Assembly: GCF_963506605.1 (NCBI RefSeq)
Contig: NC_083281.1
Coordinates: 90,644,001 to 90,708,000, forward strand
Direction of reading: 5' to 3'
DNA from: Zootoca vivipara
Taxonomy: Eukaryota
DNA: 64,000 nt
Shown piece after piece: positions 1-53,600 of this stretch. The notes beneath the pieces were generated by a model, which ran no database searches, was not told the origin of the DNA, and worked only from the letters and a program-made list of their open reading frames with translations. Position numbers and translations under genes: made by a program. How positions within the stretch are numbered: position 1 is the first letter of the stretch; each line of letters starts with the position of its first letter.

Positions 1-3000
1 GCGCTGCCGTTGGCGTGGAGGATGCCGTTGGGCTCTGCCTGCTCCTTGGCGGGTGGTGTCTCCTCCCCTGAGTCGGTGCCCTTCCCAGAGGGTGGCTCTT
101 CAGGGCGGCTGCAAGAGAGGAAAGCGAGAGGCCAGTTGCAAACCAGGGAGCCTTCAGTGGGGAGGGGTAGCAGCTGCGTTCCACGGAAAAACACTGAAGC
201 TGTTGCCCTCATCTCTGAGTAGTGGCCAAATCACAAGGTCCAGCCCAGGGTGATGCTGCTGGTGTTTTCAGGCCGAGACTGCCAGCAATCCATCTATACA
301 TCATTTTCATAACATTTTCTTTTTTCTTGAATTTTTTGAATTAATTTTCTTTTCTCTCATTACACATATACTTATAACATACAGCTTGCATAAACATCTC
401 TCCCTCCCCCCTTTTGACTTCCCTCGACTTCCATTTCTGATTTATTAACCTCGTTAATATAATCTGCTATTTTCTACAAATATATTGTTCCTTTTATTAC
501 ATTACCTATTCCCTATCCATAAAATAGGGAAAGTTTATTTAAATCCTACCACCGGATCAATATTCTTCTTTTGTTTCTGCAAATGTAATGTAAAAGGTTC
601 CCACTCTTTTTCAAAATCCCTATGGTCCTTTTCTTGAAGTCTGTGTGTCAGCTTCGCCGGCTCTGCGTAGCTCATCAGTTTTTCTTGCCATTGTTCTTTT
701 GTTGGAATTTCTCTAATCTTCCAATTCTGTGCTAGCAATATTCTCGCCGCTGTCGTCACATACATAAATAATGTTCTTTTCTCTTTTCCTGAAAGACCCC
801 CCCCCTGGTGACACCCCAGAGTTCCCCTGCAGATGGCAGCCTGCCTGGCAGTATCACACTCTCTCTGTGAGTCTTTTTTCTGCTGTGTGAGGCCAGCAGT
901 GGGCTACCCCTCTGCCCTTCTCCCTCTAGGACAGGCATCCCCAAACTTCGGCCCTCCAGATGTTTTGGACTACAATTCCCATCATCCCTGACCACTGGTC
1001 CTGTTAGCTAGGGATCATGGGAATTGTAGGCCAAAACATCTGGAGGGCCGCAGTTTGGGGATGCCTGCTCTAGGATGTTACAGGTGGGTAGCCGTGTTAG
1101 CAGAGAAACCAATAGGAGACAGGACATTCTATACAAGATCTCAAAGCAGCTGTCTTACTACAAAAGAATTTCAGAAATAGCCTGGAAAGAGAAGTTGCTG
1201 AATTGCAACTTATCACCAAGCTTAAAACCATGGAAAGACCTGGTTTGAACAGAGACGTTGGATTCTTATCTCATTATACATGATAAAGCGATCTTCAGCC
1301 ATCTCACCCCTTGCTTTTTCATGCAAGACCATTTGCAGTCATTTACAGTCGTCAACAGGTACCAGTCAGTCAATCACCCATTTCCACCACCCTTCTGAGT
1401 GATACCCCTCCCCACCCTTTCTCTACATATAAGCGTCTGGGGGCTTCTATTTCAGTGTATCTGAAGAAGTGTGCATGCACACGAAAGCTCATACCAAAAT
1501 TTTAAAAAACTTAGTTGGTCTTTAAGGTGCTGCCGGAAGGATTTTTTTTTATTTTGCTCCCTCTAGGATGGACAGAGCACCCGAGGGATGCTTTTCTTTG
1601 CAATGCTTCCGTTCAGATGGGAGTCGCAACACAGTGCCCCTCCCTGCCCCACACGGCTTTGGAACCCTTCCTTTGCACAGAGAGCTGGAGGAGCCCTGAA
1701 GGAAAGAGATCCTTAGAGCCACAAGCCACAAGGGCGGACGGCCCAGCAGGAGGAGGAAAGGAGGAAGCAGCAGGCGAACAGAGGGCTGAGCTGCGGTTCC
1801 TCAAAGCAGCAAGCGCTCTGCCATGCCTCTGCAAAGGAAGACACCTCCCCACACAAGGAGGCTGCTGCTGGGTTGCGCCTGCCCAGGCCCAGCCTCTAAC
1901 CACACCAGGAGGATGTATGTGGGCGTCTAGCAGATGAACGGACGTCAAAGGCCCCAGGAGACACTCAAGGGAACAAACTTACTGTACGGTCGGTGTCTCT
2001 TCTTCTTCTTCCTCCTCCACCTCGTCCTCTTCCAAGGTTTCATCTCCATCCTTGACGGGCACCATCTCGAGACCCTCTGCTGAGCTCTCCAGCTTCCCTT
2101 CCGCACCACCGAGGGAGGCCAAGTGCAAATCTGCCGCAGCAACTTCCTCCTGCAGGCAGGAAGTCCTTCTGGGCTCCTCCACCCATGCGCAAGAAGGCAA
2201 TGGGTGGCCACGGGATGGGGCTTGTGGCTTGTGCTCCTCCTGCTCTGCAGCAGGAGCAGAGAGGACCCGGAAGCTGGAAGAAGCCCAGCTGATCTCTGCA
2301 GGAGACGGAGGCTCTGGGGCAGGGTGGCTCTCCAGAGGCTCTTGCAGCAAAGCAGTCACCAGGGAGGTGCTGCAGACAGAAAACAGCAGGCCTTCCTGGG
2401 CTGGCAAGTCAACACCTGGGCGGGAAGGGAGGGAGGAATGGATGAGACAACAGGTTAATTACATCGTGACAAGGCTCCGCTCTGGTCCTCCATGGAACAG
2501 GGTTGGGGTCAGGTCGGGTGGGTATTTCGTAGGGCTGGGCCATATGTATTGTCCAAAACCGGTTCAAGGTCCCTATTGTGAAATTGGTTTCAAAAATTTT
2601 AACCTGGCAATATATTGCAAATCATGATGTGTGTGTGTACGCTCTGCAAAAATCACAATGCGGGGAAAACCATGAAGCCAGCCAATGCATCTACATAGCT
2701 GCATCCTTATTTCAGACATTGTGTTATCCTATATAATAAAGTCCCTGTGTCTCTGCGTCCAGATTCCCTGTGTCCCGTTTTCCGTGCTACTGAGCATGTG
2801 CCCCAGGGACACAGGGATTGGACGCAGAGACTGCACGCACACACACACATACATGCTCTCCCCACCCCACCCCCACCCCTCTGCCCTGTACTGGCTCAAT
2901 AAGCAGTTAAAACAGAGGCCACCAGGTGGAAGGCAGGAGCAGGCAGCCAGGCCCCTAAGCAGGGCAGGCCTTCTCTCCTCAACGTGCCCAAGGGCCTGAG

Positions 3001-8554: not shown

Positions 8555-8817
8555 GAAAATGTCCAAAAAGGTCCAGTTAGGCTAAGCCCTCATCTTGTTT
8601 GTAAAGGGTTGAGCAACGCGGGCCTCCTGCGGGCAGGATCCATGCCTCTCCTGCTGACGCTGGAAAAGAGAAAGCAAACATTGACGTATCACGAAACAGA
8701 AGTCCGGGGGGGGGGGGAGCTGCTGCAAACAGAACCAGGCCGAAAGGTCACCTGGAAAGGGCCCTGCAGGTGTCACCAGGTTCAAATTGGGAGTGCTTAA
8801 ATTGTCCATCATTTCAA

Positions 8818-9552
8818 AGAACCTTTTCATGAGGGTGAAAGAGGAGAGCGCAAAATATGGTCTGAAGCTCAACATCAAAAAAGCCAAGATCATGGCCACT
8901 GGTCCCATCACCTCCTGGCGAATAGAAGGGGAATAAATGTAGGCAGTGAGAGATTTTACTTTCTTGGGCTCCTTGATCACTGCAGATGGTGACAGCAGTC
9001 ACGAAATTAAAAGATGCCTGCTTCTCGGGAGAAAAGCAATGACAAACCTAGACAGCATCTTAAAAAGCAGAGACATCACCTTGCCTACAAAGGTCCGTAT
9101 AGTTAAAGCTATGGTTTTCTCAGTAGTGATGTATGGAAGTGAGAGTTGGACCATAAAGAAGGCTGATCGCCGAAGAATTGATGCTTTTGAATTATGGTGC
9201 TGGAGGAGACTCTTGGGAGTCCCGTGGACTGCAAGAAGATCAAACCTATCCATTCTGAAGGAAATCAGCCCTGAGTGCTCACTGGAAGGACAGATCCTGA
9301 AGCTGAGGCTCCAAGACTTTGGCCACCTCATGAGAAGAGAAGACTCCCTGGAAAAGACCCTGATGTTGGGAAAGATTGAGGGCACTAGGAGAAGGGGACG
9401 ACAGTGGACGAGACAGTTGGACAGTGTTCTCGAAGCTACGAACATGAGTTTGACCAAACTGTGGGAGGCAGTGGAAGACAGGAGGGCCTGGCGTGCTCTG
9501 GTCCATGGGGTCACAAAGAGTCGGACACGACTAAATGACTAAACAACAACAA
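8818..9552 (+). mobile_element. BovB (RTE-clade) LINE, 5'-truncated
   Basis: ORF 8946-9542 (FTFLGSLITADGDSSHEIKR...ELWCWRRLL...HGVTKSRTRLND) is a BovB RT C-terminus with a (CAA)n tail. Confidence 0.95.
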
Positions 9553-10028
9553 GGAAGCATCATTTCAGCTGGTGGAAGCCAATCCAAGGGGCCCAAATCT
9601 CTCCCCACCAATCCATTGGCATGAAAACAGAAGATGTTGGAGGTGAAGTGCAACCCCACCACCACAACAGCCCTAATAATCTTGGGCTGGAGAAGGAGAA
9701 ACTGGTTGGTGGCAGTGGGGTGGGAGACAGAGACTCACCAGCTCTGGGGCTCCAACCGAGGCAGATCAGAGAGGAGGCAGCGGTAGGTGCTGGCTGACCA
9801 AAGGAGCAGCCTAGCCCAAAGGAATGCCTTTGCTGCCGAAAACACACTCTGAAAAGAAACTAGGTTTCTCTTCAGTATTTTAAGAATTTATATACCGTAT
9901 CCCTGCCCAAAATTAGGTTGCTAATGGGGACTAGCTATACGGATCACATCCCAGCAGTTCTTAAAGCACGGCACCGAGTTCAGATCCATTTCTGGGCACA
10001 ATTCAAAGAGCTGACGGATACCTTAGGG

Positions 10029-13642: not shown

Positions 13643-13646
13643 TCTA

Positions 13647-15749: not shown

Positions 15750-17815
15750 AACTAAACCATTCAGTACTTCATTATTACATCCATCAAAACTTATTTACAC
15801 TGTTGAATTAATCTCAATGCTGCCAACGTTTTCAAGTGTACATGATTTCCCCCATATATTCAATAAACATTTTCCAGTCTTTCTTTAAACGTATGTTGTT
15901 CTCGTTCTCTTATGCTATATGTTGATAGGTACATGTTTTAAGCAGATCAGGGAATCTTCCAAGGGCTCCATGGCAGAGTGCCTGGTCTGCATGTTCCGCC
16001 CCCAGCTGGGGCTGGGACAGACCCTGGAGAGGGGCTTCCAGTACTGAACTTGATGGGCCGGTGGTCCGACTCGATGTGAGTCAGTTTCCTATGTTCCTGT
16101 CTTAAGAGTGCAAGTATATACTCCAAAGCCACCAGCATTGGGAAGTGTCGGGACGCCCTCTGGCCTGTGGGTGTCATTGCCAGCACATCCCCCGATTGGT
16201 GGGCTGTGGGGGGGTCTTTCCAGGGATGATGTGGGTTTGTGTGCTGCTGTTGCTTATTATTTTTATCTTCCATTCCTGGGCTGCGTAAGCATAGAACTTG
16301 GTAGCTGTCCCCCTGAAATCTGGGACTGTCCCTGGGAAATAGGGAGGGTCTGCAAGGGGTCGTTTTTGATGGCAGCAATTAGAAATACCCCCCAAAAAAG
16401 CTGTAAAACAGAATGGAAGTATGTTGAGGACTTCTTGAAGAGAGAAGGGATAAATGTAGATTTGGTGATTTGTTTAGATTGAAAGATATAAAGGGAAAGT
16501 TGGAGAATATGTGTAAATAGCAGTTTAGATAAAGCGAGATAAAAGAAATCAATTAAAGGAAAGCGGTATTCAAACAACAGGAAGCATTTCCCCCCCTTTT
16601 TCCCTTTTTCATCCTTTTTTTCTCCCCCCCCTTTTTCTTTTCTTTTTTCTTTTTTCTTTCTTCCCTTTGCCTTTCCTTTCTTTTTATATACATATATTGA
16701 TATATTATTTAATATATATGGATATAAAATTTGAAATATTGTCTAGAATATTATTTGGAATATTATTTGATATATTTGATATAACTTTTTTTATAACATT
16801 TTTCCTTGTTCCTTTTTTGTTGTCTGCTAATTTTGATAATTCCTTTTGGTTATACTTTCTTGAATGCCCTTTTTTGTATTTTTTTTGGTTCCTATGTAAT
16901 TTTTTAAAGAATCGAAATAAAGATTTTTTTATTTTTATTTTTAAAGGGAGGGTCTGCAAGGGGAGACCCCAGCCCTAGACGGGGGGCTTTGACTTCTAGG
17001 CAGCAGCCGACAGTGGCCCTTCTGCTTAGCCCATGTGATGTCATACAAGGCCTCTGCTCCTTCTCACAGAGGAAATGAATCAAAGTGTGGAAAGTTATTG
17101 AAAGAGAAGGCTTACAACTAACAGTGAGGGGCAAGGGGATGTTTTCAAAGGGAGGGGTTTCCCGGGGTTCAGTCTCAAGTGTTGCCGCCCCATCAGGGCA
17201 AGGGAGGCTGGCCAGGCTCATTTGAACCTTTCACTCAGGTAAATAGGAAGAGGACCCAGACTCCCTTCCCTTAAGGAGGGTTTTGCTCAGGATTTAGGTA
17301 ACAGGGGGGACCCCCACTCCCCCTTCCTTTGAATCAGGAAACCCCCTCCCCCTTTCTTTACCAAGGACCCAAGCAAGAACCACCCCCCACCACCCCACTT
17401 CTCCTTACCCATTATTTCATGGCGAGACACGGCAGAGTCCCGGTGCCAACACCCAGGGGGAGTTCGGAGTCCCAACAGGGTCAGAGGTGTGCTGTGAGGA
17501 AGCAACACGCCCCCCCACCCCCTCCCCGGACTGCTGAAGATGGAGCGAGAAGGAATGCAGAAAGCTGTCGCAGAAGGAAGGAGGAGCATGTTGGGCGGCA
17601 GGACAGGTTTGACGGCAGTGGATTCCCCAGGCGCAAGAGGAAGCTTCGCTCTTGGCCAGGGCTCAGGAGCCAAAGGCTGGGATGGAAGGAACAGGTTGCA
17701 GCAGAAAGGCTGCCGGGATCCAGAATGGAAAATAGGGTTGCTGTGCTTTCTGGATGAGGGAGGGTCCTAGGAAGCTGAGGAGCTGGTAGGACCGAAGTGA
17801 AACTGCAGCTCCCTT

Positions 17816-17950
17816 TACAGGTAGGTAGCCGTGTTGGTCTGAGTCGAAGCAAAATTAAAAAATTCCTTCAGTAGCACCTTAAAGACCAACTAAGTTTTTA
17901 TTTTGGTATGAGCTTTCGTGTGCATGCACACTTCTTCAGATACACAGAGA
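17816..17950 (-). mobile_element. Solo Penelope pLTR unit carrying an intact hammerhead motif (copy B)
   Basis: 135 bp flanked by 12-bp TSD TGCAGCTCCCTT (17804-17815, 17951-17962). Same sequence family as 1455-1557. Confidence 0.85.
17905..17945 (-). ncRNA. Minimal type I hammerhead ribozyme motif, copy B
   Basis: Minus strand GTGTAT CTGAAGA A GTGTGCATGCACAC GAAA GCTC ATACC, identical to copy A. Confidence 0.75.
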
Positions 17951-19411
17951 TGCAGCTCCCTTGTTATTTTTTGCTGTTGGGTGTTGATGTAACCGTGTAA
18001 CAGTGTTTGAATGTTGTTATATATTTTTTGTTGTGTTGTTTTATTCCATTATTATAATTTTTTTCTGCATTGCTTGATTTTGAAATGCATTTTTGGGGTT
18101 GTAAGCCACTTTGAGCATTGTGTGTGTGTGTATGGAAAAGTGGCATATAAATAAAATTATGAATGGTTAGCCATGCTTCCATTCTCTGAGCAACACAATG
18201 CACACAAGGACATTAAAGAACCATCTCCGAGCATCACAGGTGGATTGTGTCCATAATTCATGATAATCAATTTAATGTTGTTTTAAAAGGGGTCACAAAA
18301 GAAGGAAATCAAAGATCTGAGTGCGTCCTCAACAGTTAAAATGTCATGGCTGCCTGTTTTCAGGTGCCCCGGGAAATATATTTCAGACTCCTGCTGCTGT
18401 TGTGAGGTGGGGGCTTCAACTTCCTTGCAGTGGTTCTTACGGTTGTCCTGCAGTGTCGTCGTCACCCCACCCCAGCAACTTGTAGATAAATAATACCAGA
18501 TTCCTTTCTTTATATTTATTTAATTATTAATAAAAATTTGTACAGCACCCTTCATATTGTAGATCTCAGGGCAGTTCAAAACACACACATGCAAGATTAT
18601 ATATAAACACATTAAACATCATAAAAACGAGAGCAAAATTTCTAGAGGCAGCATCTTTTGGCATCTTAAAAGACATGCAGAATCTGCTCAGGGCTGTTTC
18701 TGTAGGTGATCTGCCTGCCCAAACGCTGCTGGGGGGGGGGGAGTCACAAGCCCAGCAGAAGCCCCGCCCTTCATTTTAACTGAGTTCTTCACGTTCTGCT
18801 AATTTCTTTCGAAACAAATATGTTCAAGCCCTGATGTCCCATATCTTTTCTCCTCATGAGTCCAGAAGATTTCTGGGGAGGGGAATTTGAAGGCAGAAAA
18901 GCAGCAGCTAAGAAAGCTGCTGGAGACATCCCCCCCCCCATCCCCTCCGCACTGGCTTCTCACTGGAGATCTCAGCCATCCCACAGTGGCACAGTGTGGC
19001 TTCAGAAGGGAAGCTGCATGTTCAGGGGTGGCACGATTGGTGCTGGAGACAATCAGCTGGGGGAAGGGGGGCTATTCACACACAGCCCTCCGAGAGAGTC
19101 CCTGGGGCATCTGTCCGGATAAGAAGTGCTGGATCTTGTGAAGCTACTTGTTTGCCCTTAATGACCTGCCTGGAGAGGACCCCTTGAAGGCTGAGAGGGA
19201 TGTCTGGGGGGCTCTCCACGCTTGGCCACCTTTACAGCTGCTCCATCCGAAAACTTCCACTTTTGATGAGGGTGGGAGGACTAGGGTGGCTGAGAGAGGA
19301 GGAAAAAAGGAGAACAGCAGCTTGGAAATCCTCCCAGGAGCCTTAGGAGCCCTCGGTGTGGCTGTGCCAGGCACCTGGGCAGGTCCGGGGGCAGGGGGTG
19401 CCCCTCAAGGC

Positions 19412-30990: not shown

Positions 30991-33900
30991 AGGTGGAGCT
31001 GTAGAGTTGGAAGGGACCTCCCCCCCCCCCAAGGCCATCTAACCCAGGCCCCCGCAGTGCAGCGGTCTCAGTGCCGGATTTACATATAAGCTAGACAAGC
31101 TATAGCTTAGGGCGCCACTCTCTTGGGGCTCCAAAAAAAAAATGTAAAGGAAAAAATACTGGATGTACATTTCCAAAATATAAGATAAAGTTAAGTTTAA
31201 GTTTGTTATGAATAAAAATCATTTTAAGTTAGAGCTTAATAACTATTTCACTATTAGTATACTTCTTATTAATTGTATTTCAGTTCAACAATTACTTTGA
31301 TAAAATACATATTTTGTTATGTGCAAATGGCTTTAGATACCTATTAGGTCCATAAATGACAGGCATGTCCAACAGGTAGATCGTGATCTACTGGTATATC
31401 ACTGGACCTCTGCGGTAGATCACTGTTGGATCATTGACTCCCCCCAAAGAAGCTGAACAACTGTGGCTTCCCTAAAAAAAGCTCAACATTTACCTCCCTG
31501 AAAAAGCTCAACAACTTTGACCTGAACCCCCAAAAAGGGGGTAGATCACTGCTAGTTTTTAACTCTGTGAGTAGATTGCAGTCTCTTGGGAGTTGGCCAC
31601 CCATGTAGCATATAATCAACACAAAAAAAAACAGCAACAATTTGTTGTTGACAAAGGACAGCTGGACATATAAAGGGCTCCATCATCTTCAGTAGCTTAG
31701 GGCCTCATCAAACCTAAATCTACGGTAGCCCTGGGTCGCACCTAAAGAGCCCCTTTTGTGATGGCCTGGAGAGGGTGGGACTCTTCTGACCAGGTCTCTT
31801 CTTGATTCCTAGTCAGCGCTGGTAGCAGAGCAGGCCGTTCGGGGACTCATCCTGGTCCCCACCAAGGAGCTGGGTCAGCAGGTGCTGCAGATGCTCCGGC
31901 AGCTAACCTCCTACTGTGCCCGAGACCTGCACCTCGTTGACATCTCTGGCCAGGCGGACTTGGCAACTCAGAGGTGAGTGGTGGGCAGAAGGGCAGGATG
32001 GCTGTCTCTTGGGCTGGCCGTGTTAATGAAGTCCCCAACCCCAAAACGCTTTCTGAATCCTGGCCCGACCGCACTGGCTGCCAATTTGTTTCCCTGCCCA
32101 ATTCGAAGTGCTCATTTTGACCTAATAAAAAAATTCCTTCAGGTAGCACCTTAGAGACCAACTAAGTTTGTTATTGGTATGAGCTTTTGTGTGCATGCAC
32201 ACTTATTCTGATTTTGACCTGTAAAGCTGTAAGCTCACAACCGCAATACCTCAAGGACTGTTCTCCCCATATGAACTGACCACGGACCCTGCGATCGTCA
32301 TCTGAGGCCTTTCTTTGTGCGTCGTCTCCATGTGAGGTCTGGAGGGTGGCAACACAAGAACAGTCCTTTTATGCAGTGACTGCCTGTTTGTGGAATGCTC
32401 TCCCCAGGGAGGCTCGCCTGACACCTACGTTACATATATTTAGGTGCCAGGTGTGGCCTCTGGTTGCTTTCTGGGTGGAAACAATGAATGGGGGACCTCT
32501 TCTGCAGTTGACACTGTCCTCTTGGGGAGATCCTCTGTAGCCCAGCTAAGGGTGGCAGTCTCTTCCCATCAGCAACCTATGGTTATGGTTGCATTGCAGA
32601 CCCAAAGCTTTCCATTCAAGGTCAGGCGGTAGTTTCAAAGAGACTGGGCCTTCCCATCTCTGATAGAGGCTTTTGTATGTTGTGGCTTCTCTTCCTTCAA
32701 GACCCATCTTGATGGAGAAACCGGATGTTGTGGTGGGGACGCCATCGCGGGTCCTGGCTCACTTGAAAGCTGGCAGCCTGAGCCTGCAGGATTCCTTGGA
32801 AATCCTGGTGTTGGATGAAGCTGACCTCCTTTTTTCCTTTGGCTTTGAGGAAGATTTGAAAAGTCTGTTGTGGTGAGTTTATCCTGGCCCTGGGTTGTTG
32901 GCTTTGAAAGGCCTGGGGCCAGCCTGTGATTTTGTGGGTGGGTGGAGGAGGCCTAGGAGGTCTCTGGGGTCTTATGAGCAGTACCTGCTCAGGTATCCTG
33001 CTACATCATTTGTTGAATGTTGGGTGCTATGCCAAGGGATAGTCCAGGAGCTAGATAAATTGCTTTTTGTATCCAGGTAGAATCCGTTTTGATGCTTGTT
33101 GGATCCATTTTGGTTTTGTGGCATATCTTATTGGGGAAATTGTGTAGTATAAGCAGAAATCCTGAGTTGAAATCCGCTTTCAGGCTGGAAAAATTTGGTG
33201 TCATCACACTAGGAAAAGAAGCTCGGCATATTTATAGTGACAGCTATGGAAGCAGAGGGATAGGTTGGGACTGTTGTGCCTGCAATGCCCTGTTTTACTC
33301 TCATGCTGGAGGCATCTGGTTCATTGCCTTTGGGTGCTGAGTGCTGGGCAAGGGGGGCTTTTGGTGTGACCTTACAAATGACGGGCTCTTGTTTTCTCTC
33401 CAGTCACTTACCCAAGATCTACCAGACGTTCCTCATGTCTGCTACCTTCAATGAAGATGTTGAGGCCCTAAAGGAGCTGGTGCTCCACAACCCTGTAAGT
33501 TTGTGGGGAAAGGGGTTGGAGGTTGCGGGGGAATGGTTTTGGATTCAAAGGAGGCAAGGTTAGAGGCTGGGATTTCCTTGTCCCATTGCTCTGGGGTTGT
33601 GGTGGTTGGGGAAATGCTCTTCACAGATAGGAATGGTCCCGTGTCTGTCTGCCTCTTGCAACTTGCGGGCGTTGAGTTGGTTCTGGTGGTCTCCTAGCAA
33701 TCTGTGGCCCAGAAAGGGAGCAATTAAGAGTAATCTGGGGAGCAGGCCTCCCTCCCGGAGTCCATCCACATGGCCTTGCCAAGCTCTGCCCTGAAAGAGG
33801 AAACAGCAGCATCAGGGGCCCATTGAGGCAGCCCCCAGCCTGCAAGAGCCTTCACACTTGCAGCTGCATTTAGCTGCGGGGGGCACTGGCTGGAACATTA

Positions 33901-36900: not shown

Positions 36901-39832
36901 CCAAGCAGGCAGAGGGAACACCTCCCCCCGGGGGCGCAGGGGTAGTGAGATCACCACGGGGCACTGGCTTGGTTCTGGGCACAGAATTGCCCAATTCAAG
37001 AGTTGCCCCATGCAGTGGCTGCTTGCCTTCCTGTCGTGTCAACCAGTCCCGATCCTCCCCCACCAGGCAGTGACGACACTCCCTTGCGGCCCTACCTGTT
37101 CCGGATGGAGGAGATTGAGGGCCTCCGGTACCGTTGTCAGGTGAGTGGGCACGGCCTGGCTGCTCTGGGAGGTGGCTGATGCAGCACCACCTCCTCTTGC
37201 CCTCTCCCTGCACGGGGGCAAACGGCGGGGGGGGGCGGAGGCAGCTGTTACAGGTGGTGCTTCAGAGCCATCCTTGGCAGGGCAGACTGCAAGTTGGGGG
37301 CAAGGTCGGCATGGGCCCAGACTTTTGAAAGAGGAAGAAACCCGTAAGGGATAGCAGTTTCAGGCAGATCTTGGGTTCTCTGCGTCGAGGACAGGCCTTC
37401 TTCAGGGATATACAATGGTACCTCTACTTACGAATAACTCTACTTACGAATGGAGCTCCGTCCGCCATCTTGGATGCGGTTTAGATAGGATTTTTTCTAC
37501 TTACAAATTTTTAGATAGGGTTGCTTCAACTTACGTACGAATTTTTTCTCCCAATGCATTCCTATGGGATTCGACTTACAAATGTGTGTTCGGAACGCAT
37601 TAAATTCGTAAGTAGAGGTACCACTGTAATAATAACAACAACAACAATAATAGATTTATTATTTATACCCTGCCCAACTGGCTGGGTTTCCCCAGCCATT
37701 CTGGGTGGCTTCCAACAAAATATTAAAATACAGTAGTCTGTTAAACATTAAAAGCTTCCCTAAACAGGACTGCCTTCAGATGTCTTCTAAAAGTCTGGTA
37801 GTTGTTTTTCTCTTTAACATCTGGTGGGAGGGCGTTCCACAGGGTGGGCGCCACTACCAAGAAGGCCCTCTGCCTGGTTCCCTGTAACTTGGCTTCTTGC
37901 AGAGAGGGAACTGCCAGAAGACCCTCGGCACTGGACCTCAGTGTCCGGGCAGAACGATGGGGGGATGCTCCTTCAGGTATACTGGATCGAGGGAGCCCCC
38001 TGATACCCCCTTCCCTGAGTGGTTTTGCCAGGCGCTAGAGGGGGGAAATCTCAGAGGAGGCAGGAACGTTTGGCGAGGAATTGTAAAGCACAGAATCCAG
38101 TTCTCTGGATGCCACAGCATGACTTGGAGGCATTGCCTCTTCCCCCTATTTCTTGCTTTGGTTGGGGTTGCTTTCTCCCGACTCAGCTGCTGCTTTTGGT
38201 AATCATGGGGGTGGAGTAAGTCCTGTGCTTTAAAACCAGCCACCCATCTCCGGCTGGTCCTCAGTTGGGTTCTTTGCTTTCAGGACGCCATGCGGTCCGT
38301 CACCAAGCAGGCCATCAAGGAAGCTCGCCTCCGGGAGATCAAGGAGGAGCTGCTCAACTCTGAGAAGCTGAAGGTATTCACCTGCGCAGCACCTGGGGGA
38401 CCCGAGAGAGTGGGAGGGGGCCGTCAGGGAGGAGCGGCTGCTGACCTCCATTTCTCTCCTCCCAGACATACTTCGAGGACAATCCCCGGGACCTGGACCT
38501 CCTGCGGCACGACAAGCCTCTTCACCCAGCCATTGTCAAGCCCCACTTGCGAAACATACCAGCGTACCTGGGTAGGAGGAGGGGGCGGCATTTGTGGCCT
38601 CAGCAGCGGGGCTCGAAGCTGCGTCTTCACCATGTCTGAGGGGATGGCAAACAGCAGCAGGCCCTGTAGATGAGCCCTGGGGCGGGACTTGGGCTTCCCT
38701 CCTCCAAGGGGGAAAGAGAGGGAGCCCCTGCTTCTCCTGCAGAATCCTCACCTTGGAGCTCACACGCCCCCTTGCCACTGTCCATGCAAATCTTCAAGGC
38801 TTCTTAAGCTGTTCCAGGGCAGAAGAAAAAGTGCAGCAAAGGGGGCTGGGTATTGGGCAGGGGGGGAAGCTGGTGCAAAAGCACCGCAGGCCTCTCGAGA
38901 ATGGGCTGCAAGAGGGGGCTCTTCCACCTCCTGTTTGGGCCAGTAACTACCAGTGGCTGCTTCTCTTCTCTCTCCAGTGCCTCCCACCCTCCGGGCTGTG
39001 GCGCAGCCCCTGGGCAGCAAGCGCAGGCGACGGAAGCCGCTGCCACCCAGGACCAGGGTATGTCTTGCTCCTCTGCTGCTGCCCCCAAACTGGAGGGGGA
39101 GCGGGGACTGGCCTGCCTTTCCTCACACCCCAGCATGGGCCCAGGGAAGGTTTCTTCACAAAACTTTGCGGAACCGGGCACGGTTCCCTGTTGCCCAGCC
39201 TATGCCTGGGAAAGTTTGTGGCGCCGCTGCCGATCGTGCTCTGGGTCCTGTAAAGAAGGCTTGACAATTGAGGGGGGGGCTGTGGAGGGCTTGACAGCTG
39301 GGGGGCCTTGACACCTGAGGCCCTATTTCACCCCCTCCTCTGTGCTTGTTCCTTCACCCCCTTACTCTCTGGGGTGCAAGAGCAAAAATCTCACATCTTG
39401 CTGCTTCCCGGGATCTCCACTCTTTGCCACATTGGATGTGGGTTGAGTTTGGGACCTGCCATTAGCCAGAGGCACCTGCCATGTGGGGCCTTGGGCAGTT
39501 CTTCTGCCCCTTTGTGTGGTGCTGCCCCTTCATGGGGGGAGTCCCAAGTGCTGAGAACAAATGGCGGGTGGGCTTTACAGACCCAATCCCCAAGCTAAAA
39601 GCTCAGAAGTCTTTGCCAGAGGCCCTTTGGATCTGTGATTGTGGCAGCAGGCCAAGGGACCCAGCAGCCTAGTGGTCAGGGAACCCCCCTCCCACTGTGA
39701 GATCCACTTCTACACTGTCTCTCCCTCCCCTGATAGGGCCAGCGGAATCCCCTGCGGAGTTTCAAGTGCACGAAGCGGAGATCTGGAGCTCCAGCCAAGC
39801 ACCAGAGGGCCACTGGAACGCCTGGATCCTGA
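30605..39832 (+). CDS. DDX56: DEAD-box RNA helicase DDX56 (557 aa)
   Basis: Exons 30605-30661, 30754-30915, 31813-31973, 32702-32872, 33404-33494, 34051-34295, 34533-34661, 36231-36344, 36757-36854, 37067-37140, 38284-38373, 38466-38571, 38978-39057, 39737-39832 (TGA); 1674 nt, in frame. Motifs: Q (GWAKPTLIQ), [38 protein letters not shown] and C-terminal NPLRSFK. Confidence 0.96.
31069..31733. mobile_element. Non-autonomous DNA transposon with a nested hAT-like MITE (31360-31605)
   Basis: Outer ends CAGTGCCGGATTTA ... TAAATC..CCCTG with AGCTTAGGGC repeats. Inner element CAGGCATGTCCAAC ... GTTGGCCACCCATG. TSDs not clear. Confidence 0.55.
32124..32210 (-). mobile_element. Degenerate solo Penelope pLTR unit (copy C, hammerhead core mutated)
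   Basis: 87 bp with TSD ATTTTGACCT (32114-32123, 32211-32220). The core reads CAGAATAA...CAAAAGCTC instead of CTGAAGAA...CGAAAGCTC. Confidence 0.8.
34874..35010. mobile_element. hAT MITE (family of 932-1067) nested in a CR1 3' end
   Basis: Perfect TSD ATCTAGTC (34866-34873, 35011-35018). Confidence 0.9.
35432..35828 (+). mobile_element. Possible solo LTR in DDX56 intron 7
   Basis: TG...GACA ends with an internal AATAAA near 35757. No clean TSD. Confidence 0.3.
37413..37626. mobile_element. Tigger-like MITE (family of 13647-13889, inverted)
   Basis: TA|CAATGGTACCTCTACTTACGAA ... GTAGAGGTACCACTG|TA. Confidence 0.85.
37627..37990 (-). mobile_element. L2 LINE 3' fragment
   Basis: Same 3' end and body as 20883-21260. 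Confidence 0.75.
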
Positions 39833-39909
39833 CCGCCGCTTATAGCTGAACTGTGTCGGGGAAGAGGCTGGCGCTGGGCCCCTGTTTTGGGGCCAGGATA
39901 TTTGATGTA

Positions 39910-39915
39910 AATAAA
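39910..39915 (+). terminator. DDX56 polyadenylation signal
   Basis: AATAAA 78 nt after the stop, followed by GTGTTTGTG. Confidence 0.7.
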
Positions 39916-41769: not shown

Positions 41770-42742
41770 CGCCTGTTTCAATGCTAGTATACCAAATCTG
41801 GTGCAACTGCATTTGGGATACTGCATGCAGTTTTGGTCGCCTCGCTTTAATAAGGATATTGTGGAGCTGGAGGTGGATCCCAAATGGCCAACCCAAATGA
41901 TCAAAGGGATGGAGCGACTCTCCTACAAGGAAAGGTTGCAGCATTTCGGACATTTTAGTTTAGCTAAAAGGTAAAGAAGCAGCATAATGGACATTTATAA
42001 AATAATGTGCAGCATGGATAAAATGGAGAGAGAAGTTTATCACCTCTCACAATGCTAGAACTTGTGGACGTCTAGTGCAGCTGAAAGTTGGAAGATTCGG
42101 GGTAGATAAAAGGAAGTCCTAGACCTGCACAGTTGAAGTGTGTATTATTTATACCCTGCCCATCTGGCTGGGTTTCCCCAGCCACTCTGAGTGGCTTCCA
42201 ACAGAATATTAAAATACAATAATTATTAAACATTAAAAGCTTCCCTAAGCAGGGCTGCCTTCAAATGTCTTCTAAAAGTCTGGTAGTTGTTTTTCTCTTT
42301 GACATCTGGTGGGAGGGTGTTCCACAGGGTGGGCGCCACTACCGAGAAGGCCCTCTGCCTGGTTCCCTGTAACTTGGCTTCTCACAGCGAGGGAACCGCC
42401 AGAAGGCCCTTGGCACTGGACCTCAGTGTCCGGGCAGAACTATGAGGGTGGAGATGCTCCTTCAGGTATACTGGGCCAAGGAGGCAATGATGGCCACCGA
42501 CTTGGATGGCTTTAAAAGAGGGTTGGACAAATTCATGGAGGAGCAGAGGGCCATCCATGGCTGCTGGCCATGATGGCTCTGCTCTGCTTCCACAGTTGGA
42601 GGCAGCCATACCTCTGGATCTCAATTTCTGGAAGCTACAGGATGGGATGGCTCTGGTGCGCCAATCTGGCAACTGTGAGGACATGATGCTGGACTAGATG
42701 GACCATGGGCCTGATCCAGCAGGCTTTCCTTATGTTCTTATG
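41770..42742 (+). mobile_element. Old CR1 3' fragment interrupted by an L2 piece (42140-42480, -)
   Basis: HLGYCMQFWSPRFNKDIVELE...MIKGMERLSYKERL ORF2 remnant and CTTATGTTCTTATG tail. Confidence 0.7.
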
Positions 42743-42799
42743 ACTGAAGTGCATACAACTGGTAGGTCTCCCCGAAGCAGGTCAGAAGAACTTCAGCTC

Positions 42800-42987
42800 C
42801 ACTTTCAGGTTAATGATAGCAGAGGTTTTACAGCCTTGGCGCAGCCTGATTGGCTCCACAGATGTCAGACCAGGGCTGCTAATAACTGGGCGTCTGGTGG
42901 ACTCGGGACAGGCACCTTGGCACAGCAAGTCCTGGGCACTCCCTCCTTTGTGAATCTTCTGTCTGGGACTGAGGAAAAGCTGCCAGG
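42800..42987 (+). promoter_or_regulatory. NPC1L1 proximal promoter (HNF1-like site, inverted CCAAT)
   Basis: GTTAATGAT (HNF1-like) at 42809-42817 and ATTGG near 42849, upstream of ATG 42988. Motif-level evidence only. Confidence 0.4.
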
Positions 42988-45900: not shown

Positions 45901-48900
45901 CGTGGATAGTTGGCCCCAGTGAATATTTGACGTTTTCTCCCCTTATGGCTTTGTTCTATAGGCTACCACTAAAACGAGGCTGCATTTTAAACTGTATTCT
46001 AACTTACATTTTAATCAACTGTTTTGTTGTTGTTGTTGTTTTGTTGTTTTTAATGTTTTTACTGTATTTATATTCGGTTTAGCTGCCCTGAGCCTGGTCT
46101 TGGCTGGGGAGGGTGGGGTATACATAAAAAATTATTATGATTAAATTTATTATAGTGGTGACAAAAAAGTCTAGACCTAATTGACAAAATAAATACTAAG
46201 AAATGACCAGTTCTGTGTGGCATCTCTCCCTCCCCCTTCTATGGGACCAAGGCGGCTGCCCTCACACCAATCCATAAGGCAAAATACTGCTCCTTCTACG
46301 GAAACTGCGGCAAGAACCCTGAAATCGGTTCCAGTCTTCTCCCGTCAAATGTCCCTTGCATCTCCAACACGCCGGCCCGGAAGCTCAATGGCTCCCACCT
46401 CAACCTCCTCCAGGCCATCTGCCCGATGCTGTTCACGGGGGCCGATGATACTTTTGCCTGCTGCTCCGAGGCCCAGCTGCAAGACCTCGGGAGCAGCCTG
46501 GCCATGTCCCAGGTGATTTTGTCTCGCTGCCCGGCCTGTTCGGAGAACTTTGCCAACATCTACTGCCAAAACACCTGCAGCCCAGACCAGAGCCTCTTCA
46601 TCAACATCACCCGCTCTTTCAACCGCACCGTCCAGGGGGAGGAGAAACAAGGGGTCTTGGAGTACCAGTGCTACTACAGCCAGCGCTTCGCTCAGGAGTC
46701 CTTCGACTCTTGCAAAGGGGTGAGGATGCCGGCCACGGGCGGCTACGCCATCGGCACCATGTGTGGCAAATACGGGGCCACCTTGTGCAACAGCCAGCGG
46801 TGGCTGGATTTCCAGGGGGACACAAGCAATGGGCTGGCCCCTTTGGCCATCTCCTTCCAGCTGGTGCCCGAAGGCTCTGCCCCAATTCAGGATGGCATCG
46901 TGCCCCTCAACGGAACGACCTGGAAGTGCAGCGAGGCAGTGGGCAATGGGACCAAGGAGAGGTGTTCCTGCCAGGACTGTTCCCAGGCATGCCCTGCAGC
47001 CCTGGACCCTCACCCTGCCCAGAAGCCCTTCCAAGTGGGGGAAATGGGTGGGGTCCTGTTCCTGTGCACCTTTCTCTTCCTCCTCCTCATGGTACTGTTT
47101 GTGGCCTTCCTGCTCCAGCAAGGGTGCTCCTGCTCATGTCGGAAACAGAAGGAGGAAGGCCCCAAGAAAGCCATGCCCGGGCCAACCTGTTCTCAGAAAG
47201 CGAGCCAGGCCACCCATGACTTCCTGGCCAGGATATTCAGCCGCTGGGGCACACTGGTGGCCTCCTACCCTGTCACGGTGATCACCATCTCGGTGGTGGT
47301 GGTGATAGGGCTCTCCAGCGGGCTGGTCTTTCTCCAGCTGACCACAGACCCTGTGGAGCTGTGGTCCAAACCCGACAGCCAGGCCCGGAAGGAGAAGACC
47401 TTCTACGACGAGAACTTTGGGCCCTTCTTCAGGACTAACCAGGTCATCCTGACCGCCAAGGACCGTCCCAGCTACACCTACGACTCCCTCGTCCTGGGCA
47501 ATAAGAACTTCAGCGGAATCCTCTCCATGGAGGTTCTGCTGGACCTGTTGGACCTGCAGCAGAGGCTGCAAGGCATCGAGGTCTGGTCTGCGGAGCATGG
47601 CAGGAACGTCTCTCTGAAGGACATCTGTTACGCGCCCCTGAACCCTCAGAATGCTACCCTCTCCGACTGCTGCGTCAACAGCCTGTTGCAGTATTTTCAG
47701 AACAACGTGACCCGCCTGAATATGACGGCCAACCAGACGATGAGGGGCAAGAATGGCACTGTGGACTGGCGGGACCACTTCCTCTATTGCGTCAAGTAAG
47801 CCCTGGCCCCCAGGGGACCCTCTTTTTTTACATTTTAGTGGGACAGCGGCCTTTGTTTTGATCAGGCTGAGCTGGAGCAGGGTGTGTGGGTCTGGCTGAG
47901 TCCTATGTCTGGAGTCAGGAACAAATGACCTCCTGTGCCATCTTGGCACAGCCCTCAAGGCGGGAGGTGAGGCTGGGCTGTCCCGGGAGCCTGGCTTTTG
48001 TTGGCAGCGCCCAAGGGCAGCCTTCAGAGTGGAGGGTTGGCAACCTCCTGCTGGCTCCGAGTCTCTGCTCATGCTCCGCTGCAGTCCAACAACAGCAGAG
48101 TTCTTCCTCCCACAAGTGTCGTTGTCCCTTTGCCTGTGGCTCAGGCTTAGAGCCCCTGATCGGCAAGCAGAAGGTCCTCTGTTCATCCCCAGCATCATTT
48201 CTAGGTAGGGTTGAGAAAGGCCTGGGAACCTGGAGAGCCGCTGCAAACTGAGGTTGATTGAGGGAGGGGGGGAGAGAAACGTTTTGGCTCTGTGGCCCCC
48301 CACCCCTCCACGGCAACGTGGGCAGGTGGTGAGACCAATCAGGTCACAGCATGAAAATAGGGATGTCTTATTCCATAATAATAAGGATGATATTATTTAT
48401 ACCACACCCATCTGACTGGGTAGCCCCAGCCACTCTGGGCAGCTTCCAACATATATAAAAACATAAGTAATCATTAAAAAACAAGCTGCTTTCAGATGTC
48501 TTCTAAAGGTTGTACAGTGGAACCTCGGTTTTCGAATGTAATCCGTTCCAGAAGACCGTTCGACTTCCGAAACGTTCGGAAACCGAGGAACAATGGGCGG
48601 TCGGCAAAACCCATTGAGGAAAAACAAAAACACGCAGCAGAAGCCTTTCGACTTCTGTGGTGTGTCCGAAAACGGAAGCAATTACTTCCGGGTTTTCGGC
48701 GTTCGGCTACCGAAATGTTTGGCTTCTGAGACGCTCTAAAACCGAGGTTCCACTGTATAGTTACTTATCTCCTTGGCTCGGGGGTGGCATAACTCCATAC
48801 CCTCCAGCATTTCTCCGATGGAAATAGGGACAGCCTAAGGAAAAGCGGGACATTCCGGGATCAAATGAAGAACTGGGATGATGGATTCTGTAAATCCGGG

Positions 48901-50608
48901 ACTGCCCCTGGGAAACAGGGTCTGGCGCAAAGCACCTTGCAAGCCCCATGCCTTCGCCCCAGCCAATGACCCTTCTTTTTTCAGGCACTGGCAGCTCAAG
49001 CAAGTTCCTGGTGTGTGCAGCTGACTCAGCAGGATTTGGCCCTCCCGTCCTTCAGCAGTTTAGGGCTCCTAGTTGTGCCCTGCCCGCTGCTTCTCTTCCC
49101 GCCCCACCTGCAATTTTAGGTGTGGGGCAAGCAACTGCCTTTTGGGGGCCACAGTTGAACTCCTGGTGGGGCAATTTTGGCTTGTGGGCTAGGAGGTTCT
49201 CCACGCCGGAAGCAGACAGCGCTTCCTAGAGGGTCCTTAATGCCGGTCTCTCACTGGGTGTTCAATTCCTTTGCCTTCGCAGCTCACCTCTCTCTTTCCA
49301 AGACATCACCGAGCTGGAGCTGAGCTGCATGGCAGACTACGGAGCACCTGTCTTCCCTTTCCTGGCCGTGGGGGGGTATCCAGGTAGGAGGCATGCCCAC
49401 CCCCACCCCCCGGAAGGAAAGATCGGGTCTTTTGTGTCATGCACAGATTGGGCTGCCCAGGCAGCAAGAGGCTGCGGTATAAGTGGTATTAAGACTTTTT
49501 TAAGGTCACGGGGCGGGGGGTTTGCACATGCACATGTGCTATTTTGGTGCTGTGGCAACCACTACAGCTTATGTTATTTTATTTTAAAAAAATGCTTTTT
49601 ATTAACTTTTTGTTACAACACAGAAACACACACACACACACTAAGATATAAGGGCAATTAAGAAGCAAACTAAAAAGAAAACACAAAACAAATGACAAAC
49701 ATATGACCATAAATCAGTACGCTCTTGCACACGGACCCATGTTACCCATAAATAGCTTATTCCATTTTTTTCTGTTTTTTTTCCTTTCCCCTTCCTTTCT
49801 TTTTTTAGAAATGAGTGATGGGGGGGGGGAACACAAATGAAAATAAAAGAAATTACATTTCTGCACATTTTTATACAGATGTGCGTAATCTTTATCCATC
49901 ACCTAATATATTCTGTATAAACTCGTTCCAAGTATCATTATACTCATGCAGAGAGGGAATTCCTGAGGGCCTCAAGATGCCCCACCTAGTCTGGTCCAGC
50001 AGTGGGGCCTGGCGAAACCACCACACCTGTGGCTTGAGGGAGATGGGGGGGCTGTGTGTGAGGGAACAAGGGCTCCGGGGGGGGGCTTGCTGCCTTGCGG
50101 ATGTGCCACCCCCAACCTGCCTCTCAGTGACCTCCTTCTTCTCCGCCTGACAGAGGAGGAGTACTCGGAAGGCCAGGCCCTCATCCTGACCTTCTCCCTG
50201 AACAACTTCCCTCTCAGTGACCCCCGATTTGACTTCGCCATGTTGTGGGAGAAGCAGTTCCTGAAGATCGTGGAGGAATTCCAGCGGGAACATGAAGACA
50301 GCTACACGGTCGCCTACATGGCAGAGGTGGGTGCTGCTGCTGCCCCGCCAGGGTCCCCACCGAGGACCCTCGTGCCTCCCATTTGCCATTAGGGGTTGGG
50401 GCTAATGGCAGGGGTCACTTCATGCCACTGCGGTCAGCGGTGCCCTACATCTGCCGGCCAGAACCAGCCCATTCCACTGACCGGTGGACCCCAGGTTTGA
50501 AATGAAGGTCCAGGTGCCTGGCCAGCCCCAAAGTGCCCTGCTAGACTGGTTGGAGAGGGTTATACTCCATCCCCGCTCCCCTCCTGTGCTGTGTCTACTT
50601 TATTCTTC

Positions 50609-50648
<40 letters not shown>

Positions 50649-53600
50649 TTCCTTCAGTAGCACCTTAAAGACCAACTAAGTTTTATATTTTGGTATGAGC
50701 TTTCGTGTGCATGCACACTTCTTCAGATACACACGAAAGCTCATACCAAAATATAAACTTAGTTGGTCTTTAAGGTGCTACTGAAGGAATTTTTTTATTT
50801 TGCTTCGACTCAGACCAACACGGCTACCTACCTGTAATAATGATAATGATAATGATAATGATTTAATATTTATACCCTGCCCATCTGGCTGAGTTTCCCC
50901 AGCCACTCTGGGCGGCTCCCAATCGAGTGTTAAAAACAATACAGCATTAAATATTAAAAACTTCCCTAAACAGGGCTGCCTTCAGATGTCTTTTAAAAAT
51001 AGGATAGTTGTTTATTTCCTTGACATCTGGTGGGAGGGCGTTCCACAGGGTGGGCACCACTACCGAGAAGACCCTCTGCCTGATTCCCTGTAACCTCACT
51101 TCTCGCAATGAGGGAACCGCCAGAAGGCCCTCGGCGCTCGATCTCACGATAGGGGTGGAGACGCTCCTTCAGGTATACTGGGCCGAGGCTGTTTAGGGCT
51201 TTAAAGGTCAGCACCAACACTTTGAATTGTGCTTAGAAACGTACTGGGAGCCAATGCAGATCTCTCAGGACCAATGTTATATGGTCCCGGTGGCCACTCC
51301 GAGACACCAGTCTAGCTGCCGCATTCTGGTTTAATTGCAGTTTCTGGGTCACCTTCAAAGGCAGCCCCACGTAAGAGCGCATTGCAGTAGTCCAGGCGAG
51401 AGATAACTAGAGCATGCACCACTCTGGCGAGACAGTCCGCAGGCAGGTAGGGTCTCAGCCTGTGTACCAGATGGAGCTGGTAGACAGCTGCCCTGGACAC
51501 AAAATTAACCTGTGCCTCCATGGACAGCTGTGAGTCCAAAATGACTCCCAGGCTGCGCACCTGGTCCTTCAGGGGCACAGTTACCCCATTCAGGACCAGG
51601 GAGTCTCCGCCCCGCCCCCTGTCCCCCCAAAACAGTACTTCTGTCTTGTCCGGATTCAACCTCAATCTGTTAGCTGCCATCCATCCTCCAACCGCCTCCA
51701 GGCACTCACACATTCACCACCTTCACTGGTTCTGGTTTAAAAGAGAGGTAGAGCTTTTTTGCTGTCCAAATCAGTCAGGTTGGTGGCGGAGGAGAGGAGA
51801 AAAATGTGCCTGGAGAGCCTGGTGTTCATCATTTTTACACTTTGGGATTTTTCAAGTACTATGTCCCTCCCACCCCCGTGTGCCTGGAGAGCTTGAGCTG
51901 AGTGGGCATAGAATCAGGGGCACCGTCCCCTGAAGTAGCAGCAGCTGCTTCATCTCTTGGCTGGTGCAAGGAATGTGGAGGGCCGGCCTAAGTTATGCGC
52001 TTTGAGCATCTTATGTGCCTGAGAAGCCAATGCTGAGCTGGCCTTGCCCATTGGTTGCTGCTTTTCCATGCTCAAGGTGAAGTATTCGAAACTCCCATTG
52101 TTTTGCGACAGGGAATTTCATTAGCGCAAGCAGTTTCTGAGCTCTGGGTGCAGTGCTGCGGCTGAGATTTCAGATAAAAACTGCAGAGTGGAGGGAAAGG
52201 AGGACCTTTTCTGACTCCCCACTTCCAGCTGCTCTCTGAATACTGGATAAGAGACCCTCTTAAGACGATTACGGGGGCAGTGGGGGCAGGCAGGGGAAGG
52301 ACTAGACCTTGTGAAAAATGAACGTAATATTTTAGCTGCATGCAGTTCATTCATTTTCAGTTTTGTATTCTTGTTATTTAAAAAAGTGTGCCTAGACATT
52401 CTGTGGTGGCTCTCATAACCTAGGTTTAAGGTGCCGTTCAGCTCCTAGCTTTCCTGCCTCAGTTTCTAACACTGTTAAGGTGGGATCACATCAACGTACA
52501 AAATAAATATATAGCAACATTTCAAGAAAATGCACTAACAGTTATGGAACAGAGCACGACTGAACCAAATAGTCACACGTAATATCATTAGGGCAAACAT
52601 CTCATACTAATAAACACTGAAACAATGCCAAGCAATAAAATGCAAACATCCAAATAGCAGCAAAAGCAATACCTGCCCTCCACCCGCCAGGAAGGCAGGT
52701 GGAAAGTCTTACCCTTGATGGCTCCAGCAGACTCTCCCCTATAGACTCTTAAGGCCCTCTTATTCTCTCCCCCCCCCCATATACCTGCAGCGTTCACTGG
52801 AGGACGAGATCAGCCGCACCACCTGGGAGGACCTCCCCATCTTTGCTGTCAGCTACCTGGTGATCTTTGTGTACATTGCATTGGCCTTGGGCGAGTACTC
52901 CAGCTGGAAGCGCATCCTGGTATGAAGGGGCTTCCCCAAGGCAAGACGGGTGGAGGTGGCCACACCCGAGAGAAGGAGGAGGAGGAGCGGGGGGGGCAGA
53001 GGAGTTCCAGCCCCTCCTGCAGCATCAAAGCTTCCAGTATTTAAGGAGCTGTTGCTTTCCGAGTGCTTCCGGAGTTTGGTGCCACCACGGAGAGAGCCCT
53101 GCTCTTCTTCTGGACCGGAAGAGGTTTCATGCCTCTCTGGGTGTAGAAGCAGGTGCAAGGATGTAATACAAAGACTGGGCTTGCCTCTGTGTGTCCTCGC
53201 TGCTGAGGAGCATCCTCTCGTCACCATGCCTTCCATCATCTTTTCAGGTGGACTCCAAGGTGACGCTGGGCTTTGGAGGAATCCTGGTGGTCCTGGGGGC
53301 TGTGCTGTCGTCCCTGGGCTTCTACTCCTACATAGGGCTGCCCTCCTCCCTCATCATCATCGAGGTCGTCCCCTTCCTGGTGCTGGCGGTCGGTGCTGAC
53401 AACATCTTCATCTTCGTGCTGGAGTACCAGGTGCGGGAAATGCCCGGAGGGCAGGAAGTGCCCTTGGCTACCAAGGCTTGGCATGTCCAGAACAAAGATG
53501 TTTTTGCTGCTTGAACGGGAGAAGAAACAGAGGCAGGAGAGGATCAAGCAGTGGCAGCCATGGCCCTGCTCTTGTTAGGCAGAAGCCCCCGGCAACGGGG

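Follow-up and report, generated by a model that had tools for sequence, protein, structure and literature searches.

Metazoan Penelope-like elements (PLEs) carry minimal type I hammerhead motifs in their pLTRs, and solo copies of these motifs have been published (Cervera and De la Peña, 2014, PMC4209133). For one PLE, from the anole, the insertion reaction has been described in vitro; two internal RT starts were used, both strands were extended and the RNA employed was uncleaved (PMC11167929). In that account the later steps of the PLE cycle remain open. The window considered here is a stretch of 64,000 nucleotides from Zootoca vivipara (contig NC_083281.1, positions 90,644,001 to 90,708,000), in which four hammerhead-bearing pieces are found. 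These pieces are dead-end stubs of an abundant and still intact Penelope-type element, and they do not constitute a separate ribozyme-driven family.

A search of the window with the 30-nt hammerhead core gave four matches at three or fewer mismatches, while none of 100 shuffled sequences gave any. The core is exact at 1461 (+), 17910 (-) and 50697 (-) and has three mismatches at 32181 (-). As the preliminary description claimed, an intact and identical 41-nt motif is read at 1455-1495, 17905-17945 and 50692-50732. The copy at 32.2 kb is core-mutated, as also described, but it lacks the 5' strand of stem I as well and is therefore an incomplete hammerhead. Thus the full set of minimal type I features (CUGANGA, the extra base, stem II, GAAA, UH and a stem I of 4-5 bp) is present in three of the four copies and not in the 32.2-kb copy. 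The Rfam covariance-model scan that had been proposed as a check returned 17 matches at E<=1, none of them to a hammerhead family.

Insertion 1 (1078..1556, +) is a 5'-truncated Neptune-type PLE with a short 3' end. At its 5' junction lies an inverted tail piece of 23 nt with the long 3' end (1078..1100, -), recognized by comparison with the pLTR of the intact copy L092 described below. This is followed by the GIY-YIG endonuclease (EN) domain's last 52 codons and its stop (1122..1283, +), as seen in the ORF list, and by the 3' UTR/pLTR. The GIY-YIG C-terminal ORF noted earlier thus corresponds to the last 52 aa of the endonuclease (86.5% identical by tblastn to aa 849-900 of the intact ORF). 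A putative TATA-like box (1427..1433, +) stands 30 nt upstream of G1457, which would be the first RNA base judging from the genome-wide pile-up of 5' ends. The hammerhead itself (1457..1494, +) consists of stem I GUAU/AUAC, CUGAAGA, the extra A, stem II, GAAA, GC, U and C17 at 1490. The right 14-bp TSD is at 1557..1570, and its left copy (920-931 plus 1076-1077) is split by a MITE of 136 bp (932..1067), which has terminal inverted repeats and its own 8-bp TSD (924-931, 1068-1075). The MITE is not PLE sequence and arrived later than insertion 1.

Insertion 2 (17816..17950, -) is a leader stub of 135 bp with a long 3' end, its hammerhead at 17906-17943 (C17 at 17910) and a 12-bp TSD (17804-17815 and 17951-17962). 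Insertion 3 (32124..32210, -) is an 87-bp stub from an older subfamily, with a short 3' end, a degenerate core, no stem I 5' strand and a 10-bp TSD (32114-32123 and 32211-32220). That these two units are ORF-less and flanked by TSDs of 12 and 10 bp is confirmed. The count of four insertions also stands, but at 50.7 kb there are two arms folded back head-to-head (50639-50837) and not a single unit. One arm (50639..50732, -) holds the full hammerhead (50693-50730, C17 at 50697), has a short 3' end and adjoins an (AAT)n tract; the inverted arm (50727..50837, +) begins within stem II and has a long 3' end. This insertion 4 sits between exons of an NPC1-family gene, and its TSD is masked by the surrounding microsatellite. 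Overall, the sequences support independent, TSD-flanked insertions made by a PLE RT/endonuclease and bearing Penelope-type minimal type I hammerhead motifs.

The parent is represented by the intact copy L092, which has a pLTR-ORF-pLTR structure with hammerheads 3,002 nt apart. Its single open frame of 925 aa (901 aa from Met), which is also open in a second copy (L091), contains RVT_1 (6e-12) and, at its C-terminus, a GIY-YIG domain (4.6e-5), both above cut-off. Between RT and EN, the CX2-5CXXC linker occurs as CX4CX2C (CNKPRCQLC at aa 761). The closest named proteins are unclassified turtle RTs with 53-74% identity. The lizard element also has a pLTR formed by partial tandem, an inverted 5' copy and a tail of 30-40 bp. 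By its domains, linker and insertion architecture, the parent is assigned to the EN+ Neptune-type PLEs. The family is young, as had been supposed, with intact ORFs and copies that are 98-99% identical. Genome-wide there are 16,613 exact hammerhead cores, and lengths form a continuum in which 30 EN-anchored loci share 10-949 nt upstream. The unbiased sample of copies is limited to young subfamilies and to 3.2 Mb at the beginning of a single contig.

The 3' ends of the copies fall into two classes about 40 nt apart. Among 99 copies, 49 end at +41..65 and 47 at +91..111, and three lie inside one array. All 23 head-to-head (inverted) pairs combine one long and one short 3' end, and 21 of them have TSDs of 12-16 bp. 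Of 72 further pairs called automatically, 65 are likewise long plus short; inspected by eye, the seven exceptions comprise two miscalls, two tandem arms that follow the rule at their outer ends, one join of two subfamilies and two true short+short pairs.

The 5' ends are not random either. Random truncation had been named beforehand as an outcome that would speak against the preliminary description, and genome-wide the ends instead pile up at stem I, with few at the cut. A base differing from the master at the position immediately preceding the initial G of stem I is found in 5,742 copies, against 2,309 one position later (three letters counted) and 1,005 one position earlier (two letters counted). 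Only 366 copies have a non-C just before the predicted cut, counting this single position. In the sample, 39 of 99 downstream-anchored copies begin at -45..-16 of C17 and 23 at -199..-46 (p=2e-16), and one begins within 0..+3. The pile-up is not confined to one base but spreads over a broad zone (-37 to -16) that contains a peak. In the first 100 copies listed, the base before the stem I G is G in 65, A in 22 and C in 13, and 85 of 92 such segments are true 5' junctions. G stands at 28 of 37 direct junctions (15 of 18 in the young class) and at 14 of 19 junctions with a TSD, in four of which a lone G lies cleanly between TSD and element. A TATA-like box is found 29-30 nt upstream of the presumed RNA start in all 15 spacer clusters listed. 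Extra G is a mark of cap copying in L1 (PMC11702581), and on this precedent the excess of G before stem I is read as copied cap. The pile-up, the G excess and the TATA-like spacing together suggest that the mRNA likely starts at hammerhead stem I. Some of the G excess may stem from short microhomologies at fold-backs, CAG being the reverse complement of CTG, or from TSDs with a terminal G. Two other origins were considered and rejected. A G templated by a master variant is colinear in only two of 92 segments, none of them in the young class. A splice acceptor, for which there is a parallel in the D. virilis intron reported to end at helix I (PMC4209133), does not fit one large subfamily that has no AG at the boundary, and the junctions share no upstream exon.

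The preliminary description viewed the short units as a retrozyme-like non-autonomous system. If they were a self-propagating retrozyme family, hammerhead-cut circular RNA would be mobilized in trans; ORF-less units with their own TSDs and intact cores would be expected from this, and the 16,613 intact cores are compatible with it. Tandem arrays also occur, though rarely: L168 is a 133-nt trimer flanked by a TSD and bearing a private mutation, and L156 is an array of four 598-nt units. Both fit the working definition as given in bioRxiv 10.64898/2026.07.22.740005. The 598-nt array was rejected as a family because its junction occurs at one locus only. Moreover, against the total number of cores, the short unit is joined head-to-tail in only 15 junctions genome-wide (counting long-end junctions), nearly all of these junctions being different, and none of the four window copies is in tandem. 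The units have neither a master of their own nor diagnostic sequence, since the 135-bp unit is identical to the autonomous L092 pLTR at 128 of 130 nt. Their ends follow the two RT start sites of the parent, unpermuted and not at the cut, and they grade into longer 5'-truncated copies. At 87-135 nt, they are also shorter than the 170-400 nt given for retrozyme RNAs (PMC7229834). A retrozyme family is thus very unlikely, and the retrozyme-like system does not survive as an interpretation.

A less drastic alternative accepts that the stubs come from the autonomous element but ascribes the 5' pile-up to RT stalling or template switching at hammerhead hairpins, or to self-priming on antisense RNA, as proposed in PMC3846280. 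Many 5' ends do lie inside the hammerhead (19 of 99 at -30..-16), there are fold-back junctions that rely on microhomologies, AC|GAAAG for example, and some fillers are short inverted pieces. However, the peak coincides with the base of stem I that lies furthest 5'; from there, an RT travelling 3' to 5' would presumably meet no further structure. The G excess is present at direct junctions with TSDs too, and the TATA spacing is fixed at 29-30 nt despite spacer sequences specific to each subfamily. We therefore regard this alternative as improbable. An origin from hammerhead-cleaved RNA, with the ribozyme setting the 5' ends, has hardly any likelihood. Of 100 fold-back junctions listed, about 15 would fit a start at the cut, but 11 of these are explained equally well by the 4-nt microhomology of stem I. 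Eighteen of 30 inspected copies among the few with a non-C before the cut are point variants of the intact core, and complete units keep the whole hammerhead 5' of the cut. For the window's own units, this origin is refuted.

Probably the hammerhead works as a weak ribozyme that depends on a dimer or on protein and is maintained by selection in master elements only. The 38-nt motif is constant across subfamilies while the upstream spacer differs. Among the non-CpG core positions, N7 alone shows much variation (19 of 144 copies, against three or fewer at the others), and the core is otherwise conserved. Stem II folds into 5 bp closed by a 4-nt loop. The 14-nt palindrome of stem II favours intermolecular pairing, as had been claimed, but the product is a 14-bp duplex (-28.0 kcal/mol) in competition with the double-hammerhead fold (-11.1), considering secondary structure only. 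Folding against shuffles gave no z-score support for the motif (hammerhead z -0.44) or the leader. In three RNA-seq runs from one study, aligned to one L092 period, reads showed no begin or end peak at the presumed start or the cut, and the ORF start was covered at a depth of 0-5.5. Between 56 and 86% of aligned reads continue into unrelated sequence, the signal being dominated by stubs within other transcripts. No circular junction was found among the joints listed, in standard libraries from which small circles could be lost. Neither the genomic end counts nor these runs thus gave a trace of hammerhead cleavage.

The numbers point to a capped sense RNA as the template, to priming by both ends of the target at two internal sites, and to cleaved RNA being little used. 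It is most probable that the four pieces are 3'-pLTR fragments of the abundant autonomous Neptune-type PLE, each likely made afresh by its RT/endonuclease through this route. A TATA-like pLTR promoter would yield a capped RNA from the first G of stem I, so that the hammerhead would form the first 38 nt of the mRNA, with the AUG about 100 nt after the cut site. The protein would nick both target strands 12-16 nt apart and prime internally about 60 or 97 nt after the cut site. With the mRNA leader as template, RT would copy about 90 or 135 nt before running off the cap, giving the short units; read-through RNA primed in the downstream pLTR would give longer, variably truncated copies; and extension of both target ends, one at each site, would give the fold-backs. 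The template would mostly be uncleaved RNA, cleaved RNA being rarely used. With somewhat less confidence, we favour a stricter model in which the stubs record PLE insertion itself. The capped mRNA would begin exactly at stem I. An asymmetric RT, probably a dimer, would prime the two target ends at two fixed sense-RNA sites, always one long and one short, before running off the cap. If true, the one-sided tail and the head-to-head palindromes would be explained without an antisense template, and rare template jumps such as the 133-nt trimer would show the birth of retrozyme-like arrays.

As a ribozyme or a new mobile system, the pieces carry little weight because PLE pLTR hammerheads and their solo copies are already published. 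They are of value as a natural archive of the PLE cycle, each step of which is made testable by the intact 901-aa element with its pLTR. They also warn against scoring solo hammerhead pLTRs as monomers of retrozymes. Literature searches, mostly of open-access text without figures or key supplements, found no PLE cap-derived G and no strict long+short rule. An identical reptile motif may already stand in supplements of PMC4209133 or bioRxiv 10.64898/2026.07.22.740005.

Compared with known systems, the lizard motif resembles the hammerheads described in the text of PMC4209133 in its 4-bp stem I, long stem II, extra base between A9 and G10.1, G10.1-C11.1 pair and palindromic 15.2-16.2 region. There too, most copies are solo and tied to truncated PLEs, and reptiles are among the reported hosts. 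Unlike in that account, a Neptune-type master is defined here and the motif, a putative ribozyme, stands at the presumed RNA start. The element shares with Neptune-clade EN+ PLEs, as described in PMC8557442 and PMC3846280, the RT, CX2-5CXXC linker and GIY-YIG order, partial tandems, an inverted 5'-truncated copy, a 30-40 bp tail at one end and a pLTR TATA/Inr. In those descriptions the tail is optional or often one-sided, whereas the lizard element has a near-strict one-long-one-short arrangement and, in contrast to them, 5' ends with an extra G. Poseidon PAc of Anolis (Frangieh, 2024, PMC11167929) likewise has a tail defined by two internal RT starts lying next to each other, and both strands are cut and extended; hammerhead cleavage is reported as unneeded for its insertion. 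However, PAc belongs to a different clade from the Neptune-type lizard element, its ORF starts at stem II and its RT starts lie 111-118 nt into the ORF, whereas both lie upstream of the AUG in the lizard element. Non-LTR retrozymes, as presented in PMC7229834 and bioRxiv 10.64898/2026.07.22.740005, share a type I hammerhead, the lack of an ORF and derivation from, or relation to, PLE pLTRs. They are tandem repeats with linear and circular RNAs. In contrast, the lizard units are solitary or head-to-head, flanked by TSDs and bounded by the RNA start and RT sites of their parent.

A hammerhead motif of Penelope-like elements (PLEs) had been placed at four sites in the window, and both the motif and its coordinates were correct, with a 30-nt core found four times and in 0 of 100 shuffles. 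When the Rfam check proposed in the preliminary description was run, no hammerhead family was matched in the window despite the motif being real. This null result is expected because the minimal hammerhead variants were defined by a relaxed descriptor (PMC4209133). The reported TSDs of 12 bp around the 135-bp unit (17816-17950, -) and 10 bp around the 87-bp unit (32124-32210, -) also stood. The latter copy lacks the stem I 5' strand, which had not been recognised, and the copy at 50639-50837 is a head-to-head fold-back, which had been missed. Similarly overlooked in the first copy (1078-1556, +) were its 14-bp TSD and its 5' start, an inverted tail piece. The left TSD (within 920-1077) is interrupted by a 136-bp MITE with its own 8-bp TSD, so this MITE family was mobile after the PLE copy had landed. 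Three further MITE copies lie near 20.0, 27.1, and 34.9 kb. The fourth insertion lies between exons of an NPC1-family gene (46207-54213, +; NPC1_N, NPC1_MLD, and sterol-sensing), presumably NPC1L1. It landed in the (AAT)n tail of one of a single family of ~280-nt retroposon 3' ends (20941-21223, 37658-37940, 42143-42425, 50864-51146, 58218-58327, and 61361-61728).

Full-length copies were reached by stepwise upstream walking through the 1.44-Gb genome. One intact copy, L092, has a pLTR-ORF-pLTR layout (pLTR, PLE terminal repeat) with hammerheads at 4127 and 7129, an AUG ~100 nt 3' of the predicted cut, and, upstream, a truncated copy in inverted orientation. The encoded 901-aa protein possesses RT and GIY-YIG domains and a CX4CX2C linker, a type described as a mark of Neptune/Nematis (PMC8557442), and the closest named proteins are turtle RTs. 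The ORFs of L092 and a second intact copy, L091, located 53 Mb apart on contig C5, are fully open and 99.7% identical, suggesting that the family was active very recently. Elsewhere, the locus L075 is a shorter partial tandem with a 522-aa frame between two hammerheads 2,524 nt apart. Because the genome contains 20,730 exact matches to the 26-mer 3' of the cut and 16,613 intact hammerhead cores, four insertions in 50 kb are not special.

The 3' ends of a 99-copy sample are bimodal, with 49 at +41..65 (short) and 47 at +91..111 (long). All 23 head-to-head pairs in this sample join one long and one short end (p=2.4e-7 against 0.5), and the TSD is 12-16 bp in 21 of them. At other loci, 65/72 pairs were called long+short; inspection of the remainder left two true short+short pairs and one pair of separate subfamilies. 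The rule also holds for the first and fourth window copies and for L092. The sections of the PLE papers examined term the tail optional or often one-sided, and in PMC11167929 it is the interval set by two RT starts. The literature search found neither a strict long+short rule nor a cap-derived G stated for PLEs.

The 5' ends were sampled from 99 of the first 100 matches listed for a pattern downstream of the hammerhead. Relative to C17, the base 5' of the predicted cut, 39 lie at -45..-16 and 23 at -199..-46 (p=2e-16), while 31 lie farther upstream, four at -15..-1, and two at or after the cut. Genome-wide, the base immediately 5' of the stem I G is non-master in 5,742 copies, vs. 2,309 at the next position and 1,005 at the preceding one (two of the four letters). 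Among the first 100 copies listed, 65 have G as this base. Among segments inspected at this edge, 85/92 were real junctions, with G in 28/37 direct ones; a lone G separates TSD and element in 4/19 TSD-bearing junctions. In L1, an additional G is a trace of the mRNA cap (PMC11702581). Additionally, each of the subfamily clusters shown has a TATA-like box at a distance of 29-30 nt upstream despite differences in the spacer, and promoters in pLTRs were already known (PMC2377424, PMC3846280). Together, the end pile-up, G excess, and box spacing suggest that the mRNA of this element starts at stem I. However, some of the extra G's are explicable by fold-back microhomology, the 5' ends spread over a broad zone, and no start signal was seen by RNA-seq.

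Among 144 copies retrieved without the motif as search pattern, N7 varies in 19, the C11.1-G12 CpG carries 11 and 10 transitions, and the remaining core positions vary in at most three. This pattern fits selection on masters with neutral decay of stubs, the short ORF-less pLTR pieces. H17, the cleavage position, is U rather than C, a permitted change, in several subfamilies (L176, L178-L180, L182, L188, L203; L208, L210, L221, L230). The palindromic stem II does favour intermolecular pairing, as proposed, but its 14-bp duplex (calculated at -28.0 kcal/mol) competes with the double hammerhead (-11.1) and is favoured over it; the palindrome is therefore not clearly helpful to catalysis. Published minimal hammerheads are described as cleaving weakly as dimers or only with PLE protein.

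The proposal of a retrozyme-like, hammerhead-driven non-autonomous family is unsupported. Non-LTR retrozymes are described as tandem repeats whose RNAs, linear as well as circular, span 170-400 nt (PMC7229834; bioRxiv preprint). The short unit has only 15 long-end head-to-tail junctions genome-wide, nearly all different from one another, and no non-autonomous master was found. The 135-bp unit matches the pLTR of the autonomous L092 at 128/130 nt. A trimer of a 133-nt leader with an inverted arm (L168:1150-1640; G000:C3:72.14 Mb) lies within a single 13-bp TSD, and all its units have one private stem II loop change; it looks like template jumping within one insertion event. At a single locus, L156 (G000:C1:2777320-2779740), four tandem 598-nt units, 99.9% identical and each with an intact hammerhead, derive from an internal deletion that fuses the start of the ORF with the end of EN. 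This array does satisfy a published working definition of retrozyme. Four reads of RNA-seq run X22 show a resembling join (L092 4351 to 6806).

Overall, the hammerhead-bearing feature exists but is nothing out of the ordinary. What interest remains concerns mechanism, as the stubs likely chart where the RNA starts, together with a priming step that uses two sites and two ends. Few ends fall at the cut, and cleaved RNA is therefore rarely the template, a statement about template use and not the ribozyme's ability to cut. Specifically, only 366 copies genome-wide have a non-C 5' of the predicted cut, and 18/30 inspected were point variants of an intact core. Among 100 listed fold-backs with one arm reaching stem I, ~15 are compatible with starting at the cut, including 11 via 4-nt stem I microhomology. 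This rarity agrees with the anole PLE data presented in PMC11167929.
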